The notes under the pieces were generated by a model that did not search any database, was not told the DNA's origin, and was given only the letters and a program-made list of their open reading frames with translations. From Candidatus Sabulitectum sp. (GTDB lineage Bacteria > Fermentibacterota > Fermentibacteria > Fermentibacterales > JCC-6), in assembly GCA_021107435.1 (NCBI GenBank), contig JAIOSV010000060.1, positions 9,824 through 73,823 on the forward strand: a DNA stretch of 64,000 bases, read 5' to 3'. Numbering within the stretch: position 1 is the stretch's first letter; the number at the start of each line of letters is the position of its first letter. This document shows, in pieces, positions 54,978 to 63,959 of this stretch. A program made the translations under genes and the position numbers.

Positions 54978-57900
54978 TTACTTTGTCTTACTCTCGATAG
55001 CTTCACGAACAGCCTTTTGCAGTACCTTCATAACGTATGGTTTTGGTATAAAGCTTATGAGTCCTTTGCCCGCGAAACGCTCTGAAATTTCCTGCCAGCA
55101 GTAACCACTGGACAGAACAACGCGAACGTCTTTCCTGATTCTCTGCATCTCCTGAAGGGCTTCTTCCCCATCCATTCGCGGCATGGTCAGGTCCAGGAGA
55201 ACGCAATCTATTTCGTCGTGTCTGACTCGAAATATCTCAACTGCTTCCTCGCCGTCTACAGCCAGTATCACACTGAGCCCCAGCCGCTCAAGCATGTGCT
55301 TCCCAATTTTGCGTACTGTCTCCTCATCGTCAGCCAGAAGAACAGTACCATGTCCATTCCAGTCCGTCTGCTCGTCATTTACTTTTACGACAACTTTGAT
55401 GGATTTGTCGGAAACTGGCAGAAGAATTCTGAATGTAGTACCTGTTCCAGGTTCACTGTAAACCCTGAGTACTCCTTTGTGCCCTCGCACAATACCCTGA
55501 ACAGCGGACAGTCCCAGTCCGCGTCCGTCAATCTTAGTTGAGAAAAACGGATCGAACAGCCGTTGCTTTGTTGAATTGTCCATTCCGCATCCGGTATCGG
55601 TTACCTCAAGAAAGGCATACATTCCTTCAAGCAGATTCTCGTCTGCATATGTTTCGTGCAGATGGAAATTGTCGTATTGAACAAACCCTGTGGAGATCGA
55701 AATAACACCGTTCATATCACCTATGGCATCCGAAGCATTTGTAATCAGATTCATGATTACCTGTCGAATCTGCGTAGCATCAGCCATGATGATGACAGGA
55801 TCATTTGCGAGTTTATACTTGAGAACCGCTTTCTTTCTGATTGAGACCTCAAGGATGTGGGACATCTCTTGAACAATCTCCGAGAGATTGGTCGACTCAA
55901 TTACAGAATGTCCTTTCCCTGAATAGGCAAGCATCTGGTAGCAGAGTTCAGCAGCCCGACTGGCCGCGGTTTCAATGTCCTGGATATTCTGACGAGCCGG
56001 AGATTCCGCTGGAAGATCGAACAGAGCCAGATCAGCATTACCCAGAATACCGGTAAGAAGATTGTTAAAGTCATGTGCGATACCACCGGCAAGGACTCCG
56101 AGACTCTCAAGTTTCTGAGCGTGCAGAACCTGTCGTTCGAGATTCAACTGCTCCTGCTCGGCACATTTACGTTCAGTGATGTTCGTCATAACTCCCTGGA
56201 GAAACAATGGTGTTCCTTCATCACTTTTAACAATGACAGCCTCATCCCTGAACCAGACAGTATCGCCTGCTTTCGAAATCATACGATACTCGGATAGAAA
56301 CGGTACTCCTGTCTCATGGCAGTTGGCAACCTGCTCCAGTACACGATCGCGATCATCCGGATGCAAATGCTGAGCCCAGTAATCCGGATTATCCTTGTAG
56401 ACCTGCGGTGAAACACCCAGGAATGCTTTAATCTGGGGGCTTATAAAGGTAGTCGTGCTTATCTCGTTAAGAGTGGCGATGTAGGTGACTGCGGGCATTT
56501 GCTCCACAAGAGTTCGATAACGCTTCTCCGCTTTCTGCAATTCCTTTTCAGCCATCTTACGCTCAGTTATATCGCATCCCGTTCCCTGGAACTCGACCAC
56601 CTGCCCATCATCATCCAGAATTGCTCGATTGGTCCACTGGTTCCAGCGGGACTCGCCATCGGGCATAACAATACGGTATTCATGAGTCGCAACAGTATTT
56701 TCTCTTCCAAGAGACGCGAAGTACCCTGTTACAGCCTGATGATATTCTTCCGGGATTAAAGAAAAAAAGCTCTGCCCTAAGAGTTCATCACGACTGCGAT
56801 CAAAGTATCGACAATATGCATCGTTGACAAATGTAAGCGTGCCGTCAGGCAGATTACGACAAATAAGTTCAGTCTGATCCTCAACTATACCGCGATAGCG
56901 CTCCTCGCTCTGGCGCAGAGAGCCCTCTGCACGCCTGCGCCTGAGGACGTTTACAGTCAGGGCGAGAATTGTCGCGGACTGCAGCAGCACAAAGGCCATT
57001 GCCATCCAGAAAAGCGTCTTGTGCTGATAGTACAGCGACACCGGCTCGTTCAGTACAACTCTTCCGTCGGGCAGATCCGCGACTGAGACTCCATACCGCT
57101 GCATCACATCATAATCGAACATGGGAACATTAGGACTTTCAGTAATAACGGGAATATCATCCGGCGATTCTCCGTTCAACACCCTGAGTGCCAGTAGCGC
57201 AGCATGTTCTCCCTGAGCCTTGCCGCTGGTAACAACACCTCCTATAACACCATGCCCCACAAACATATCCCACGCAGTATAAACGGGAACACCACAGTTC
57301 TCTGTTACAAGCATCGTATATTCCCGGTAATTGAACGTTCTTCCGGCCTGATCCCTGTAGAAAGAGAGAAGAAGAACTACTGTTTCATCAGGAAGTTCAT
57401 TAAGAGATTCCGTCAGCTCTTCAGTTGTAAGGTTCAGCAATTCGATGAATTCAATTCTGCCGGCAAATACGGGCACAGTGTTTCTGAAGTTCTCCAGATT
57501 CCAGATGCCTGTAGGTGTACTGTCATTTACCACCGCTACATATCGCGTACCCGGATGCAGTTTCAGCGCCAGTTCAATAGTTCCGGCGATATCCATAGCC
57601 TCTGCAACGCCTGTAATTCCTCCAAAGCTCTCAATCCTTGATTCCGTGTAGCTGTTCAATCCACAAAAAACAACGGGCACACCCGGAAAAAGCAGATCCC
57701 GATGAAGCAATAGAAAATTCAGCGCAGTGTCATCAGTGGTAATTACAAGATCAAAGTGATCTCCTTCATACTTGTCCCGGTACAACTGCTCCAGCAGAGG
57801 AAACATATCCTCGGGCGTGTACACCTTCGTATCCATATACTCGGTATGAATATTCATCTCAAAGTCTGCTTCATCCAGAACAGAATGCAATCCATTCGAA

Positions 57901-58082
57901 ATATTCTCTGTCCATATGAAACCCGGATGATAAGAATGAAGAATCAGAACACAGGGAATGTTGCTTTCATGTACTGCAGGTATCGCAATTGCAGTACTGC
58001 CGGACAACACTGCAATCAACAAAACCGACAGCAATAAAAACAGTCTGCTCTCTGAAAACCGCACTGATCCGGCTGCCATCAA
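54978..58082 (-). CDS. Hybrid sensor histidine kinase: periplasmic solute-binding-like domain - TM - 2 PAS - HisKA - HATPase - REC
   Basis: 1034 aa. Signal/TM segment LFLLLSVLLIAVLSG; a periplasmic domain of about 330 aa; second TM LFWMAMAFVLLQSATILALTV. PAS domains present. H-box IAHDFNNLLTGILG, G-box GRGLGLSAVQ, receiver VLLDLTMPRMDG. Confidence 0.9.
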   Translation of the reverse strand: MMAAGSVRFSESRLFLLLSVLLIAVLSGSTAIAIPAVHESNIPCVLILHSYHPGFIWTENISNGLHSVLDEADFEMNIHTEYMDTKVYTPEDMFPLLEQLYRDKYEGDHFDLVITTDDTALNFLLLHRDLLFPGVPVVFCGLNSYTESRIESFGGITGVAEAMDIAGTIELALKLHPGTRYVAVVNDSTPTGIWNLENFRNTVPVFAGRIEFIELLNLTTEELTESLNELPDETVVLLLSFYRDQAGRTFNYREYTMLVTENCGVPVYTAWDMFVGHGVIGGVVTSGKAQGEHAALLALRVLNGESPDDIPVITESPNVPMFDYDVMQRYGVSVADLPDGRVVLNEPVSLYYQHKTLFWMAMAFVLLQSATILALTVNVLRRRRAEGSLRQSEERYRGIVEDQTELICRNLPDGTLTFVNDAYCRYFDRSRDELLGQSFFSLIPEEYHQAVTGYFASLGRENTVATHEYRIVMPDGESRWNQWTNRAILDDDGQVVEFQGTGCDITERKMAEKELQKAEKRYRTLVEQMPAVTYIATLNEISTTTFISPQIKAFLGVSPQVYKDNPDYWAQHLHPDDRDRVLEQVANCHETGVPFLSEYRMISKAGDTVWFRDEAVIVKSDEGTPLFLQGVMTNITERKCAEQEQLNLERQVLHAQKLESLGVLAGGIAHDFNNLLTGILGNADLALFDLPAESPARQNIQDIETAASRAAELCYQMLAYSGKGHSVIESTNLSEIVQEMSHILEVSIRKKAVLKYKLANDPVIIMADATQIRQVIMNLITNASDAIGDMNGVISISTGFVQYDNFHLHETYADENLLEGMYAFLEVTDTGCGMDNSTKQRLFDPFFSTKIDGRGLGLSAVQGIVRGHKGVLRVYSEPGTGTTFRILLPVSDKSIKVVVKVNDEQTDWNGHGTVLLADDEETVRKIGKHMLERLGLSVILAVDGEEAVEIFRVRHDEIDCVLLDLTMPRMDGEEALQEMQRIRKDVRVVLSSGYCWQEISERFAGKGLISFIPKPYVMKVLQKAVREAIESKTK

Positions 58083-58303: not shown

Positions 58304-59221
58304 CTACTGAGGCCAGCGATAGAACTTCACAGGCAATCCAAAGAAGCCATTCTCCTCTATTGTGCATACATGAGGTCCATTAAACCAGCTCTGTATCACC
58401 ATATCCTGCGAGTCCAGAACACCGGAAATACCTCTATCCTCCAGAAAAATGGAAACCTGGGCTCCGAAGTGAAGAATGTCACCGGGACATAAACCTTCCT
58501 CCCCGACGGAAACAGAGCAATCCTGATCATTCCTGAAGATTGCTGCTTCAGTATCTGTATCAGGCTTATAGCTGCCATCCCCAAGGGGTACCAGATAGTC
58601 GGTAATACCACGGGGGCCCAGATACAGGTAGTCGAATCCCTGACGGCGTTTCCCGTAAACAGCCAGCCCGGCACAATCAGTGCCTAACCTGTTATCCGAC
58701 TGCTGGCTGCCGTCTGGAGTTCGCCTTGGAGCCATTATAAAAGGAGTGTTTATCAATTCGTAAAGGTATCCGATGTAAGTGTCATCAGGACGCAGAGATA
58801 TCTGGATTACATCATTAGTATGAAGTGGATTAACCTGATACAAAGTGTCAAGGGTTTCCATCCCTGTTGCAAGGTAGAAAGTTCCCAGCATCGGTACGCC
58901 GTTTTCTCCGGGAATCAGTAAAATTTCCTCAGTGCAATCAGCAAAGGAAACAGCAGTATAAAGCAGTGTATCCACTCCAAGGCCAACCGGTCCCACATCC
59001 TGAAGCATGTTATCATAAAATGCCCGGACGGGAAGCAGGAGTTGCCAGTCAACATCTTCTCCACTGGGACTTATCACAGTGATTGAGGACGGTACAACAA
59101 ATGAGAATTCAGAAGCCCACTGCCGGAAACCAATGTGATGTGATGCGAGCAGGCACAGAAAAGCAACAGACAACTCTGTTACTCCCAGCGCCAACCGGCT
59201 ACAAAAAGCTCTGATACACAA
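58304..59221 (-). CDS. Hypothetical exported protein with an NlpC/P60- or DUF1175-like Cys motif
   Basis: GTDCAGLAVYGKRRQG and GDILHFGAQVSIFLEDRG resemble papain-fold amidase motifs; this is weak. An alternative TTG start at 59173 would remove the 43-nt overlap with the upstream gene. Confidence 0.4.
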   Translation of the reverse strand: MCIRAFCSRLALGVTELSVAFLCLLASHHIGFRQWASEFSFVVPSSITVISPSGEDVDWQLLLPVRAFYDNMLQDVGPVGLGVDTLLYTAVSFADCTEEILLIPGENGVPMLGTFYLATGMETLDTLYQVNPLHTNDVIQISLRPDDTYIGYLYELINTPFIMAPRRTPDGSQQSDNRLGTDCAGLAVYGKRRQGFDYLYLGPRGITDYLVPLGDGSYKPDTDTEAAIFRNDQDCSVSVGEEGLCPGDILHFGAQVSIFLEDRGISGVLDSQDMVIQSWFNGPHVCTIEENGFFGLPVKFYRWPQ

Positions 59222-60474
59222 AGATCTTCACAGGTATCTCCGGGATAAGCATCGTCGAAATGCAGACGGACTCTGTCCGTAATGATACCCGTGCCGCTGT
59301 TGTAGATCGGCTGAACCAGAGGAGAGAGTATTCCCTTCTCAACTTCCACCCACGGAATATCCTCAAGAATTACTGTTTCAGTATACACATCATCCTCTCC
59401 GTATATCTCTACAGTGACCGTTCGCGGTCTGCCGTTGGATGTGTACACAGATTGACTCTTTGTATATCCGCAGATAATTCCCACGAATCCGACAGTCATT
59501 GGTCGGTCCATTTGAAGCTCAATCCACTCTCCACCATACCCAGGAACATCCTCGGCCCAGGCTCTGGACAAATCCCTGTCAATCAGGTTATCCGGTGAGT
59601 AGGTGCTGTTACCGCTTGAAGACAGGTATGAAGATGCAGTAACCGTACACTCTTCAGGATCATCGGACTGCCCCAGGAGGTTCCGGGAATTACCCCAGAT
59701 AGAAACATCATAACTGACTTCCAGGGGAGCAGCAGAAGCCATATTAAAATGGTTTCTGGAGATCACATACTGCGTTTCCTCAATCCACCTGCCTCCCTCG
59801 GGCAGACTCACAGTTCGACCTCCATTGGCAATGAGTTCACTGAAGTCGAATCTGATCTCCAGTTGTTCGACTGTTCCGTCCCCCCAGTATCCTGCGGGAT
59901 CAAGCAGGTAACGGAAGTATCTGTTCTCAAAACCCGGGAAGTAGTTCTTTGTGGTCTCAAAGTCTGAAAACCTTGCTTTAACGCTGTAGCTGACCACAAG
60001 CTCAACAGTATCCGATGGCTGAATCTCAAAGGTAGTGGTAAAGAAAAGCCTGTGGAAATTCTGCTCACTCCCGTAGCTGTTCAGGAAAGTGTCAGTGTTG
60101 AACCCCTGCCTGATCTGGTATTCCAGCAATCTCCCATCCAGTGTAATTTCAAATCGGGGAACCTCTTCATCAACCAGAATACTATGATCCATTCCTGCAG
60201 ATGCAGATAAAGCCAGATCCACAGGAAAGGCATAACCGGTCCTTGTGCCGCCACCTGTGTCATGAAGAATGTATGTGGCTTCCACATCAACATACTTGAA
60301 TCCGGGAGTGATAAGCAGATTTTCTGAGACAAGTTCACCCCCTCTGTAAGATCTGTATATCACATTTCCGGAACCAACTGTGTTTGAAAAATCAACAGGA
60401 CCCCCATTTGCCAATACCGTGGAACTCACACCGGCACACAGTAAAAGAAATGCGCCCCCTTTCGGTAATTTCAT
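59179..60474 (-). CDS. Secreted protein with a C-terminal galactose-binding-like (discoidin-type) domain
   Basis: ATG at 60474, 5 nt after GGAGG. Signal peptide MKLPKGGAFLLLCAGVSSTVLA. C-terminal YSPDNLIDRDLSRAWAEDVPGYGGEWIELQMDRPMTV...NGRPRTVTVEIYG resembles glycan-binding jelly-roll domains. The N-terminal half may be DUF4424-like. Confidence 0.5.
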   Translation of the reverse strand: MKLPKGGAFLLLCAGVSSTVLANGGPVDFSNTVGSGNVIYRSYRGGELVSENLLITPGFKYVDVEATYILHDTGGGTRTGYAFPVDLALSASAGMDHSILVDEEVPRFEITLDGRLLEYQIRQGFNTDTFLNSYGSEQNFHRLFFTTTFEIQPSDTVELVVSYSVKARFSDFETTKNYFPGFENRYFRYLLDPAGYWGDGTVEQLEIRFDFSELIANGGRTVSLPEGGRWIEETQYVISRNHFNMASAAPLEVSYDVSIWGNSRNLLGQSDDPEECTVTASSYLSSSGNSTYSPDNLIDRDLSRAWAEDVPGYGGEWIELQMDRPMTVGFVGIICGYTKSQSVYTSNGRPRTVTVEIYGEDDVYTETVILEDIPWVEVEKGILSPLVQPIYNSGTGIITDRVRLHFDDAYPGDTCEDLCVSELFVAGWRWE

Positions 60475-60668
60475 CGCAACCTCCAGACCCGTTTGTTCAG
60501 GCACCTGCCTTAATTATCTACAGGAAACAACATTACAGAAGGCAACCTCACTCGTCAAGAACACCGTAAACAGCCTTTCCCCCCGTTTGCCGATAATTCT
60601 CGGAATCTGGTGCTTTTGCAATTCCGATTGTATAGTTCATCGAATCAGCAATATGAAAGGCTGGATTT

Positions 60669-61421
60669 ATGAAAAACTACAGGGCTGAAATTTATGGTGA
60701 GCGAATTGCAGACACTTACGACGATTGGTACAGTTCACCAGGGGAATCATCAATCGAATTGTTGAGCGACCTGGCAAACGGCGGTCGTGTACTTGAACTG
60801 GGAATCGGAACAGGTCGTGTCGCTTTACCTTTGAAGGAAAAGGGAATTGACATCCACGGAATTGATGCGTCACCGGCGATGATAGGGAAGCTCCGCGCAA
60901 AGCCGTATGGAAATGACATACCGATCACATTCGGGGATTTCTCGGAAGTGCCCGTTGAAGGCAAATTTGATTTGATCTTTGTTGTCTTCAACACTTTTTT
61001 CTCCCTGACGACTCAGGAAACACAGCTGAAATGTCTTCAGAATGTTGCGAAACACCTGACGATGAAGGGAAAGTTTCTGATTGAAGCTTTCGTTCCGGAT
61101 CCTGGAAGATTTGATCGGGGGCAGAGTGTCCGAGCAACGGAAATAGGCGAGAACCAGGTAAAAATCGATGTATCAAAACACAATCAACTGACGCAGCAGA
61201 TAACCGGCCAGCATGTGCTTCTAACAGATGGAGGTGTGCGTCTTTTTCCTGTAACTATTCGTTACACCTGGCCGTCAGAGCTGGACATGATGGCAAGAGT
61301 CGCGGGCATGAAGCTGATTGACAGATGGGGAGACTGGAATCAGGTTTCTTTTTCATCAGACAGTATCAAGCACATATCGGTTTACAAACCCTTGCAGAAA
61401 CAGACACACAGAAAGGGATGA
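60669..61421 (+). CDS. Class I SAM-dependent methyltransferase
   Basis: Motif I VLELGIGTGRVALPL and post-I HGIDASPAMI; 250 aa. Confidence 0.8.
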   Translation: MKNYRAEIYGERIADTYDDWYSSPGESSIELLSDLANGGRVLELGIGTGRVALPLKEKGIDIHGIDASPAMIGKLRAKPYGNDIPITFGDFSEVPVEGKFDLIFVVFNTFFSLTTQETQLKCLQNVAKHLTMKGKFLIEAFVPDPGRFDRGQSVRATEIGENQVKIDVSKHNQLTQQITGQHVLLTDGGVRLFPVTIRYTWPSELDMMARVAGMKLIDRWGDWNQVSFSSDSIKHISVYKPLQKQTHRKG

Positions 61422-61955
61422 ATGTATTTTCTTAAAGAAATCTTCCGGGAGGATGTTATCAATACAGAGGGAAGAACACTTCACCGGGAGGCCGTACGAG
61501 GAATTATTCTGCAACAGCACACCATCCTGATGATCTATTCCCCCGTGAACGGAGATTACAAATTCCCCGGAGGAGGAGTTGACGAGAATGAAAGCTGTGA
61601 AAAAGCGCTTATACGGGAAGTTCAGGAAGAATGCGGAGCAGTACTTTCCCACATCAGTCAGGAAGTGGGTTGTGTGATTGAGTACAGCATCCCCCGGGAA
61701 ATCAACTATGATGTCTTCAAGATGACATCGCGTTATTTTCTTTGTAACACTGATGATGATTTCCGAGAACAAAATCTGGATCAGTATGAACAGGATTTGG
61801 GATTCCGCCCCGTCCGGGTGGATATTGACACTGCCATTCAAACAAACAACGCTATCCTTGATGCCACAGATCGAAAGATACCACCATGGACAGATCGGGA
61901 AACTCTCGTTCTGAAATACATCAAAGAAAACATCCTTCTGAAAAACTCTATCTGA
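61422..61955 (+). CDS. NUDIX hydrolase
   Basis: Nudix box GGGVDENESCEKALIREVQEECGA. The ATG immediately follows the methyltransferase stop. Confidence 0.82.
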   Translation: MYFLKEIFREDVINTEGRTLHREAVRGIILQQHTILMIYSPVNGDYKFPGGGVDENESCEKALIREVQEECGAVLSHISQEVGCVIEYSIPREINYDVFKMTSRYFLCNTDDDFREQNLDQYEQDLGFRPVRVDIDTAIQTNNAILDATDRKIPPWTDRETLVLKYIKENILLKNSI

Positions 61956-61965
61956 AACCGGCGAT

Positions 61966-63060
61966 TTATCCGGCAGATTCGGCAGCCTGAAGATCTGCAA
62001 GCTGGCACATCATCAGTTCCCCTGTCTTCTCATGCCGCAGATGAAGTCCGTTTCCGCCACACCAGCGCCAGGAACTGCATTCAGCGCACAGGCCCGTCTT
62101 TGCCCAGCTTCGATCCCGCATGACATCAAATCGATTCTCCCAGCACTCCAGAAAATCATCTTTGTAGATATTTCCCTGAATGAAGTCATCGCGAAGACTG
62201 GGACAGGCGGAAATGGAACCGTCAATAAGCACCGATCCTATGTTAATTCCCGCTTTGCAGAACATGAAGTCATCTCGAACTTCCTTCTCATAGTTCCCCA
62301 AAAAGCCGTCACAGCCATAGTTTACTCTGATATCACCGGACTCCCTGGCCGATTTGATGAAATCCAGTGCCTGACGCAACTGGCTGCCGTTCAGGGAAAG
62401 ATCGGGATCAGAAGCACCCCTGCCTCTGGGGAATATGCTTACTATTCTCCAATTTTTTACCCCCATTTTTACAAGCATGTCTTTCATCTGCGGAAGATCT
62501 TGAAGATTACGCTGCGTAAGACAAGTCATAACATCGTATACAGGGATCGAACTTGCTGCCAGATTGGATATTGCTTTAACTGCCCGTTTGAATGAACCTT
62601 GTTTATTCCGGAGCCAGTCATGAGAACCGGCCATGCCGTCCAGACTCACAGTCATAGTGACCATTCCAGCGTTCAACAGAGAATTTAATCGAGCAGATGA
62701 GATATCCCAGCCATTACTTACTATTCCCCATGGAAATCCCCAGCCGGCGATCTGATCACCAACCTGTTCCAGATCACGCCTGAGAGTGGGCTCTCCTCCG
62801 GTGATTGCGATTGTGATATTTCCAGGATCCAGTTTCTTTCGGATATCGTCAAGCACACGAAGAAAATCTTCTGCTGCCATATCGGCCACAGAGGAAGAAG
62901 ACATGCAATCGCTGCCGCAGTGGCCGCAATTCAGATTACAGCGGAGTGTACACTCCCAGAACAGATACCTGAGTTCGTGAATGCTTGTCTGAATGTTCCT
63001 GTGATATCGAAAAAGCTCCAGTTGTGTACGCTTCTTCAGGCCCGGTCGAAGGCATGTCAT
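61966..63060 (-). CDS. Radical SAM enzyme with a C-terminal SPASM-type auxiliary cluster domain
   Basis: CNLNCGHC (CxxxCxxC) at residues ~41-48, GGEPTL, and a C-terminal Cys-rich region FCKAG...SACPSL...GLCAECSSWRWCGG. 364 aa. Confidence 0.85.
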   Translation of the reverse strand: MTCLRPGLKKRTQLELFRYHRNIQTSIHELRYLFWECTLRCNLNCGHCGSDCMSSSSVADMAAEDFLRVLDDIRKKLDPGNITIAITGGEPTLRRDLEQVGDQIAGWGFPWGIVSNGWDISSARLNSLLNAGMVTMTVSLDGMAGSHDWLRNKQGSFKRAVKAISNLAASSIPVYDVMTCLTQRNLQDLPQMKDMLVKMGVKNWRIVSIFPRGRGASDPDLSLNGSQLRQALDFIKSARESGDIRVNYGCDGFLGNYEKEVRDDFMFCKAGINIGSVLIDGSISACPSLRDDFIQGNIYKDDFLECWENRFDVMRDRSWAKTGLCAECSSWRWCGGNGLHLRHEKTGELMMCQLADLQAAESAG

Positions 63061-63063
63061 CGT

Positions 63064-63519
63064 CTACTCGCCTGCGCTTTGAAGGTAAAAATCGACATCA
63101 AAACTAATAAACTCCATATGACTCTCAAGGAAAAGCAGTGTATCCTTACCCTCGAAGAATCCGTTTTCAGTACCATCAATATCAGTGGCTGTCAGTCTAA
63201 CTGAATCGGGCCACGGGAAGTACTCAGATCCCATAAACAGTTCATAGGATCCGTTCCAGATAGTCGTATACTCACTGTAATCGAACGAAGAATCGGGGCT
63301 TGACAGTCTGACCTGAATTCCCTGAACATAACTGCTGTCTTCTGCCGAGCGAATCTGACCATCAATACGCACTTCCACACTGGGAACACCATAATCAGGA
63401 GCCATGCTGCATCCGGAGAGAATTCCCAAAAGACTCAATACTGAAGCAAACAGTTTTCCGAATGATCTGAGGTATACAATCTGTCCTTTTCTTACTGCTT
63501 CATCCACGGACGCGCTCAT
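63064..63519 (-). CDS. Lipoprotein, paralogue 2 (radical-SAM-associated)
   Basis: Lipobox LGILSGC. Shares the blocks YG-P, DSS..GIQ, SPDSS.DYS, YFPWPDSVRL.ATDIDG.ENG.F..KDTLLF with the upstream gene. The start overlaps the upstream stop (TAATG). Confidence 0.75.
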   Translation of the reverse strand: MSASVDEAVRKGQIVYLRSFGKLFASVLSLLGILSGCSMAPDYGVPSVEVRIDGQIRSAEDSSYVQGIQVRLSSPDSSFDYSEYTTIWNGSYELFMGSEYFPWPDSVRLTATDIDGTENGFFEGKDTLLFLESHMEFISFDVDFYLQSAGE

Positions 63520-63959
63520 TATTCTTTTTCAAGGTAAAAGTTGATCTGAAATTCCTGAAATTCCTGATCTCTCTCCGGGAATAGAAGCGTATCTTTAGCG
63601 GCAAACAAGCCATTCTGATCTCCATCAATATCAGTAGCGATAACTCGAACAGTGTCAGGCCAGGGGTAAAATTCGTTTTCAATGAACTGCTGGTACTGCC
63701 CGTTTTCATCCGACAGAGAAGTACTGTAATCAATGGATGAATCAGGGCTGGCTATTTGAATTTGTATCCCCGCAATAGAACTGCTGTCTGCGGCAGAGGA
63801 AGTTTGACCGGAGAAATAGAGTGTCGCGGGCGGACCGTAAGTCGGTTCAGCTACTGAATCACAGCATGAAAGTATACCGGCCAGACTCAATGCTGAAGCA
63901 AACAGTTTCGAGATCAGCCTAAGAAAGACAATTCTTCCGCTTCTTACTGCTTCAGCCAT
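63519..63959 (-). CDS. Lipoprotein, paralogue 1 (radical-SAM-associated)
   Basis: Lipobox AGILSCC. AGGAGG RBS upstream of the ATG at 63959. 146 aa. Paralogous to the 63064-63519 product. Confidence 0.75.
   Translation of the reverse strand: MAEAVRSGRIVFLRLISKLFASALSLAGILSCCDSVAEPTYGPPATLYFSGQTSSAADSSSIAGIQIQIASPDSSIDYSTSLSDENGQYQQFIENEFYPWPDTVRVIATDIDGDQNGLFAAKDTLLFPERDQEFQEFQINFYLEKE

Follow-up and report, generated by a model that had tools for sequence, protein, structure and literature searches.

The stretch of DNA analysed here (the window; 64,000 nucleotides) comes from Candidatus Sabulitectum, of the Fermentibacteria lineage, and carries on its minus strand three consecutive genes: two encode the paralogous lipoprotein precursors lipo1 and lipo2, and the third a radical S-adenosylmethionine (SAM)/SPASM enzyme, or rSAM (Table 1). 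Our open reading frame (ORF) calls agree with the gene order and coordinates of an initial annotation made from the letters alone, and the junctions it described are present in the sequence: at the first, TAATG, the lipo1 stop TAA (63521-63519) and an ATG (63519-63517) have one base in common, and at the second the lipo2 stop TAG is followed by ACG and then by the ATG of the enzyme gene, a gap of 3 nt. A strong Shine-Dalgarno sequence, AAGGAGG (63972-63966), lies six bases before the lipo1 ATG. The first junction carries a caveat, in that the start of lipo2 is uncertain: were translation to begin at a GTG (63507-63505), the protein would open with M-DEAVRK; this places K/R inside the first 7 residues and matches the MAEAVRK start found in every Fermentibacteria orthologue. 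Lipo2 meets a PROSITE-type lipobox rule only with this GTG, which appears to agree better with the lipoprotein signal than does the ATG at 63519; if it is the true start, lipo1 and lipo2 lie 11 nt apart without overlap. The three genes are tightly packed whichever start holds. A scan of the operon for promoters and terminators returned nothing beyond the shuffled expectation, and the upstream limit is set by the sole longer contig, which reaches 178 nt before lipo1 and then stops.

All three proteins score above the curated cutoffs of the NCBIfam hidden Markov models for a gene pair, TIGR04133 and TIGR04134, that the initial annotation had named as 'rSAM with lipoprotein'. The enzyme matches TIGR04133 with 506.4 bits (E = 3.3e-152, cutoff 425) over profile positions 1-348 of 350, and lipo1 and lipo2 pass TIGR04134 narrowly, with 42.8 and 44.6 bits against a cutoff of 39.8. 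The Joint Genome Institute name for the enzyme is 'radical SAM enzyme (rSAM/lipoprotein system)'. NCBIfam has listed the pairing itself for years, as a 'hypothetical equivalog', and the window locus is an ordinary member of it from a new lineage: nothing essential differs, its particulars being a Fermentibacteria host and two partner copies, and the window copy itself adds little beyond the family's extension to Fermentibacteria. The only paper that we found to cite 'TIGR04134' is a review that gives it as a type IX secretion system (T9SS) type-B C-terminal domain model (PMC11611037); this looks like a slip for another accession, NCBIfam TIGR04134 being the rSAM-associated lipoprotein.

Table 1. 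The three-gene operon and its mapped features, in window coordinates.
Feature	Position	Strand	Basis
lipo1, lipoprotein precursor, 146 aa, first gene of the operon	63519..63959	-	ORF; TIGR04134
Signal peptide of lipo1 up to lipobox I-L-S-C32, whose Cys codon is 63866-63864	63864..63959	-	Read from sequence; alignment column
Y41-G-P-P44 of lipo1, its copy of the Y-G-x-P motif found family-wide; putative site of modification	63828..63839	-	Alignments A1-A3; partner scoring
lipo2, paralogous lipoprotein precursor, 151 aa	63064..63519	-	ORF; TIGR04134
lipo2 Y43-G-V-P46 motif, 5 residues past lipobox Cys37 (codon 63411-63409)	63382..63393	-	Alignments; partner scoring; model
Radical SAM/SPASM enzyme gene, 364 aa	61966..63060	-	ORF; TIGR04133; Pfam Radical_SAM and SPASM; AlphaFold2
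C41-N-L-N-C45-G-H-C48, radical SAM [4Fe-4S] motif (CX3CX2C)	62917..62940	-	Sequence; conservation in 118 members
SPASM region with seven invariant Cys: C250, C268, C286, C325, C328, C334, C352	62005..62313	-	Pfam; 118-member alignment

Pfam recognises Radical_SAM (68.9 bits) and SPASM (25.0 bits, cutoff 21.5) in the enzyme, in line with the CNLNCGHC motif and Cys-rich SPASM-like tail first noted by eye; C41, C45 and C48 are all present. Of 118 family members at least 99% have C37, C41, C45, C48 and C52, the outer two flanking the cluster motif, and 98% have C180; the fourth Cys of the SPASM CX2CX5CX3C pattern is replaced by an invariant glycine, Gly338. By analogy with the anaerobic sulfatase-maturating enzyme anSME, we tentatively assign C325, C328, C334 and C352 to one auxiliary cluster, which would leave three Cys for the other, together with either some fourth ligand or an open site. 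The AlphaFold2 model of the enzyme (predicted local distance difference test score, pLDDT, 90.8) is closest in structure to SuiB, SkfB, BlsE, anSME, PqqE, ChlB and EpeE, and the nearest solved structures by sequence are BlsE, SkfB, PqqE and GDGT-MAS (E ~1e-14 to 1e-10). Before the barrel there are only ~35 residues, forming one helix, the cluster motif beginning at residue 41, and Pfam, which finds only the two domains named above, detects no recognition element (RRE, PqqD-like) of the kind used in ribosomally made, post-translationally modified peptide (RiPP) pathways. The next-best NCBIfam rSAM/SPASM models reach at most 121 bits against cutoffs of at least 265; the 25 best NCBIfam matches include no anSME model, and all of them except TIGR04133 fall far below their cutoffs. 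By these scores the enzyme lies outside every characterised family, and the grouping with an enzyme of known function that the initial annotation had named as a danger to its proposal was not found. Its nearest relatives, 85-90% identical, come from Ca. Sabulitectum and Fermentibacteraceae metagenome-assembled genomes (MAGs), and it is more than 50% identical between phyla. The TIGR04133 family numbers 5114 clusters (90% identity) at E <= 1e-40; its members are found in Bacteroidales of the gut and rumen, in Spirochaetes and in several candidate phyla.

Lipo1 and lipo2 are 55% identical across 143 residues (E = 2e-53), and the blocks listed for them in the initial annotation (YG-P, S-A-DSS..GIQ, SPDSS-DYS and PWPD..ATDIDG..NG..KDTLLF) are all present in both. 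So are the two lipoboxes, ILS before C32 in lipo1 and LSG before C37 in lipo2, each following a hydrophobic helix and K/R when read by eye (helix 2-36 in the lipo2 model). Lipo1, whose lipobox had been written LSCC, needs one correction: judged by eye against a PROSITE PS51257-type rule, lipidation presumably falls on C32, with C33 at +2, and not on C33 itself. The lipobox Cys is invariant in alignments A1 and A2 and is the sole Cys of mature lipo2. A few residues beyond it, one Tyr is invariant in alignments A1-A3, within EPTYGPP in lipo1 and APDYGVP in lipo2.

AlphaFold2 models lipo2 (pLDDT 91) as a signal helix (2-36), a flexible linker (37-48) and a beta-sandwich (49-146), with Y43-G44 inside the linker (pLDDT about 74). 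With Foldseek (E about 1e-4 to 1e-3) the sandwich matches carboxypeptidase D domain II, the transthyretin-like domain of CPD, 5-hydroxyisourate hydrolase and CnaB-type pilin domains; as modelled, the mature domain is a beta-sandwich of the transthyretin/carboxypeptidase-D-regulatory/CnaB type, and one or two of the sandwich glycines are also invariant in the family alignments. A Pfam scan of lipo1 and lipo2 gave no match, and thus no sulfatase domain, and the sulfatase motif C/S-x-P-x-R was not found in either; relatives of the two proteins bear PF13620 or PF13715. In an exhaustive profile search, positions 42-90 match giant proteins of CarboxypepD_reg-like repeats, and the full-length matches are proteins of 130-160 aa. 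Word-indexed protein searches with the two lipoproteins returned 5 and 11 matches only, because the partner family diverges fast. A loop, D-[IV]-D-G-x-x-N-G, is near-invariant in beta-sandwich partners (D113-G120 of lipo2, 63160-63183; D110-G117 of lipo1, 63609-63632); in sequence it looks like a DxDxDG-type calcium site, and the short partners are without it.

The initial annotation had called for a survey of gene neighbourhoods around homologues of the enzyme. Our loci comprised 18 orthologous ones from a genome scan, a few found by exact look-up and 80 from a metagenome scan, and 91 of them had at least 500 nt of upstream flank. An automatic test, which accepted a same-strand ORF chained to the rSAM gene and encoding a signal-peptide-like run that ends in Cys with YG no more than 45 residues on, found an upstream partner at 75 of these 91 loci. 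At four more (L093, L096, L109 and L127) the partner lies directly downstream, and inspection of the remaining loci revealed partners missed by the filter in all but two. Overall, an adjacent signal-peptide/lipobox partner is encoded on the same strand at about 89 of the 91 loci, in several phyla and often with overlapping stop and start codons; the adjacency is near-universal, and the lack of conserved adjacency that the initial annotation had named as the other danger to its proposal was not seen. Partner genes also lie directly downstream of rSAM at L099, L102, L111 and L113, which with the four above makes eight loci, and the gene order within the pair is therefore not fixed.

Among the 75 automatically scored loci, 54 have one partner copy, 17 have two and four have three, and a looser pass found up to four. 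The duplicated partner remarked on in the initial annotation is thus real (two copies here), but we rejected duplication as a special feature of this locus, since multi-copy partners occur at 21 of the 75. One enzyme gene beside one to four divergent tandem partner genes has the appearance of an enzyme with its substrates. All-against-all clustering of 1168 flanking ORFs from the 91 loci gave no third conserved gene, be it a protease, an exporter or an RRE protein, and returned only the partner families and antisense shadow ORFs. Finally, in a Ca. Aegiribacteria MAG (L020, 6001-6421) the TIGR04133 gene is a pseudogene, with residues ~103-307 deleted and the frame shifted, and no partner lipoprotein is found within 6 kb of it; the two have therefore decayed together.

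Two side observations concern the flanks. An S41/Tricorn_C1-type peptidase lipoprotein stands beside the system at 7 loci in two phyla (L004 674-1747 (+), L055 2484-3506 (-), L062, L074, L091, L100 and L125). Its gene shares the strand of the system at the Fermentibacteria locus; at the Bacteroidales loci it runs divergently and is accompanied by a DUF3316 gene. A processing protease is one possibility and mere synteny another, and we rejected it as a third conserved gene, 7 loci being too few. Among the antisense ORFs, one of 187 aa lies inside the rSAM gene of the window (62032-62595 (+)), and its counterparts cluster in 63 loci; it merely shadows the rSAM gene, which is strongly conserved, and is no gene itself.

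The partners fall into five classes: firstly, precursors of 57-75 aa without a folded domain (for example L052 4695-4922 and L061 717-920); secondly, proteins with one or two transthyretin-like beta-sandwiches; thirdly, Ser- and Cys-rich proteins of 100-400 aa; fourthly, coiled-coil proteins with the Tyr motif described below at the extreme C-terminus (L077, L085); and fifthly, proteins with a T9SS sorting tail and no clear lipobox (L063, L083). Some mature partners have merely about 22-50 residues. TIGR04134 recognised none of eight variant partners scanned (0/8), and ten rSAMs beside variant or displaced partners (or, at L070, beside none) all pass TIGR04133, with 532-625 bits. The TIGR04133 partner class is thus broader than TIGR04134 describes.

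What is common to all partners is a signal peptide and at least one copy of a short motif, and nothing else. We scored this motif in 107 partners, in which the Tyr is present in 107/107 by construction of the screen. Position -2 is A or P and position -1 is E in 51/107; position +1 is G in 104/107 and A in the other 3/107, position +2 is V, T or M, and position +3 is P in 73/107. The motif often directly precedes the first beta-sandwich strand, and partners with two domains repeat it ahead of the second. As a control, 2845 other ORF segments in the surveyed loci yielded 200 that are lipobox-like, and ten of these contain YGxP. All ten proved to be partners immediately downstream of rSAM, at eight loci with no upstream partner or a short upstream flank, and the true YGxP background is therefore 0/190.

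These results bear on whether the adjacency could be fortuitous, or reflect mere shared regulation, with Y-G-x-P acting as a signal for sorting or structure that has nothing to do with the enzyme. The motif does sit mostly just past the lipobox, as Bacteroidota lipoprotein export signals do, and it does border the beta-sandwich. By contrast, a chance or purely regulatory association fits poorly with same-strand pairs and overlapping stop and start codons retained across phyla, with a motif absent from every other lipobox-like ORF of the same loci, and with an rSAM pseudogene that has no partner. We judge this explanation to be very improbable indeed.

The motif and its surroundings also bear on a second alternative, in which the enzyme does modify the lipoproteins, but at the lipobox Cys or at a residue cross-linked to it, for example by a thioether formed before lipidation. 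The invariance of this Cys in A1 and A2, and its being the only Cys in mature lipo2, would suit such a role; moreover, with Gly338 in place of the fourth SPASM Cys, one auxiliary cluster may have a free site, and CteB reportedly uses an open auxiliary-cluster site to bind a substrate Cys. However, the lipobox already explains the invariance, and a thioether at this Cys would block lipidation. The Cys-to-Tyr spacing ranges from 0 to 38 residues in scored partners and exceeds 100 in L077 and L085, and the T9SS-tailed partners have no clear lipobox at all. An attack on the lipobox Cys is therefore improbable in our view.

Enzyme and partners differ sharply in their rates of change. Between the same Fermentibacteria genome pairs the enzyme is 85-87% identical and the lipoproteins 44-54%, so the partners evolve much faster than the enzyme, the motif excepted; positional orthology of copy 1 and copy 2 among Fermentibacteria gives a weak signal, with identities of 44-54% in all directions. 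Family-wide, the 23 residues before the Cys are 17.6% identical and the mature domain 31.8%. We accordingly rejected the signal peptide as a leader-like recognition element for the family as a whole, despite the constant MAEAVRK of Fermentibacteria.

Such a contrast in rates lends some weight to a third alternative, in which the lipoproteins are not substrates: the enzyme would have as its substrate some small molecule, some lipid or a protein from another locus, and the lipoproteins would serve the same pathway outside the cytoplasm, for example as binding proteins, carriers or receptors. An enzyme so well conserved across phyla beside fast-evolving partners would suit this arrangement, as would the presence of BlsE and the lipid-coupling GDGT-MAS, which act on small molecules or lipids, among its nearest solved relatives, and the separation of a cytoplasmic enzyme from an exported partner. 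Several features of the partners argue otherwise: they have no common folded ligand-binding domain, some of their mature forms are very short, and the part that is conserved is a short linear motif, such as enzymes recognise. Moreover, tandem divergent partners with a single enzyme gene suit substrates, and no further pathway gene is conserved nearby. We consider a non-substrate role unlikely, though far from negligible.

We favour instead the reading that the TIGR04133 enzyme is an anSME-like maturase that would modify the adjoining lipoprotein precursors at Y-G-x-P before Sec export, and give it about an even chance of being correct. The tight packing of the three genes in the window, the joint decay at L020 and the anSME-like size and shape of the enzyme all speak for it. 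What the sequences show is family membership, near-universal adjacency, the common motif and the absence of any other conserved gene among the surveyed loci; from these we infer that the partner would be the substrate, Y-G-x-P the site and the time of modification before export. With partners so variable and only a linear motif in common, modification of the precursor at Tyr-Gly is the most economical reading. In the proposed mechanism, the cytoplasmic enzyme would act on the lipo1 and lipo2 precursors at [A/P]-[E]-Y-G-x-P, past the lipobox Cys. It would cleave SAM to give a 5'-deoxyadenosyl radical, which would take a hydrogen atom at or beside the invariant Tyr-Gly, while the auxiliary clusters would manage the redox step; the outcome could be a cross-link, an oxidation or an epimerisation. 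The modified precursor would then follow general Sec export, lipidation at the lipobox Cys and cleavage by signal peptidase II, with no dedicated protease or exporter required.

Five points weigh against lipoprotein maturation by this enzyme. Firstly, we found no experimental study of the TIGR04133/TIGR04134 system in the searchable full-text literature, and so no tested function there, as the initial annotation had stated; secondly, no partner lies within the fetched flanks of L070 and L131; thirdly, we found no leader-like recognition element, signal peptides being not unusually conserved in the family; fourthly, given its place beside the beta-sandwich, the conservation of the motif could be partly structural; and fifthly, an identity above 50% across phyla would be less expected of a peptide maturase than of a housekeeping or cofactor enzyme.

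Known systems offer precedents for parts of this scheme. The substrate of anSME is a full-size sulfatase that is recognised through a short linear motif and exported after modification. The TIGR04133 enzyme matches it in size and fold along the full length of both proteins (template modelling score to 4K36/4K37 0.68-0.69 both ways), also has a SPASM domain that bears auxiliary clusters, and likewise lacks an N-terminal RRE. It differs in partners that have neither a sulfatase domain nor C/S-x-P-x-R and carry Y-G-x-P instead, in being almost always encoded beside its presumed substrates, and in the absence of one SPASM Cys. anSME is a protein-modifying enzyme and not a RiPP maturase (PMC10114670). 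By this analogy the TIGR04133 enzyme resembles anSME in its logic more closely than a leader-dependent RiPP maturase.

A second precedent is QhpD, which introduces thioether cross-links into QhpC, the small subunit of quinohemoprotein amine dehydrogenase. It too is an rSAM/SPASM enzyme that modifies a nearby-encoded protein of ~100 residues, which is then exported. The Cys-rich QhpC depends on a dedicated protease and on an ABC exporter; by contrast, mature lipo2 has the lipobox Cys only, and no protease or exporter is conserved beside TIGR04133. The initial annotation had called a full-size, lipid-anchored rSAM substrate unusual biology. Unusual it would be, but with anSME and its sulfatases and QhpD with QhpC in mind, not unheard of.

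The enzyme is nearest by fold and sequence to the rSAM/SPASM maturases of RiPPs, whose products include a Lys-Trp link (SuiB), thioethers (SkfB, CteB), a Glu-Tyr C-C bond (PqqE) and a modified C-terminal Tyr (MftC). Some TIGR04133 partners are likewise short (57-75 aa), peptide-like and arranged in tandem arrays, and Tyr is a known target of both PqqE and MftC. However, the TIGR04133 system has no RRE/PqqD-like domain, leader peptidase or exporter (Pfam; flanks of the 91 loci), its 'leader' is an ordinary lipoprotein signal peptide, and most of its partners are folded proteins of about 150 aa. With no RRE domain or protein and no peptidase or exporter family conserved at these loci, it does not class with RRE-dependent RiPP maturases.

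With a little less than even odds, this reading extends to the family as a whole: TIGR04133 may mark a class of surface lipoproteins and lipopeptides, widespread and so far unrecognised, that are modified by radical SAM enzymes, in which a lipobox signal peptide serves as leader and Tyr-Gly-x-Pro as core, and in which modification in the cytoplasm is followed by general export and lipid anchoring. If so, the class would span ~30-residue peptides to multi-domain proteins, and Bacteroidota, Fermentibacteria, Marinimicrobia, Spirochaetes and relatives, gut species included. If the enzyme does modify its lipoprotein neighbours, this would be a new radical-SAM protein modification and a new way to decorate bacterial surface lipoproteins. 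The Tyr-Gly-x-Pro motif and the very short natural partners offer a practical gain, namely a defined peptide that can be tested in vitro.

Two genes at window positions 60669-61955 (+), one for a SAM-dependent methyltransferase of 250 aa and one for a NUDIX hydrolase of 177 aa, converge on the operon, the NUDIX hydrolase stop lying 10 nt from the rSAM stop; in the flanking-ORF clustering, their neighbourship with the system is not kept at other loci. Further along, at 59179-60504 (-), is a gene for a 441-aa secreted protein with a PF25302 NADase_transloc match, which is syntenic in the related MAG locus L005, and at 54978-58082 (-) a gene whose 1034-aa product is a hybrid histidine kinase that has ABC_sub_bind at its N-terminus, together with several PAS domains.

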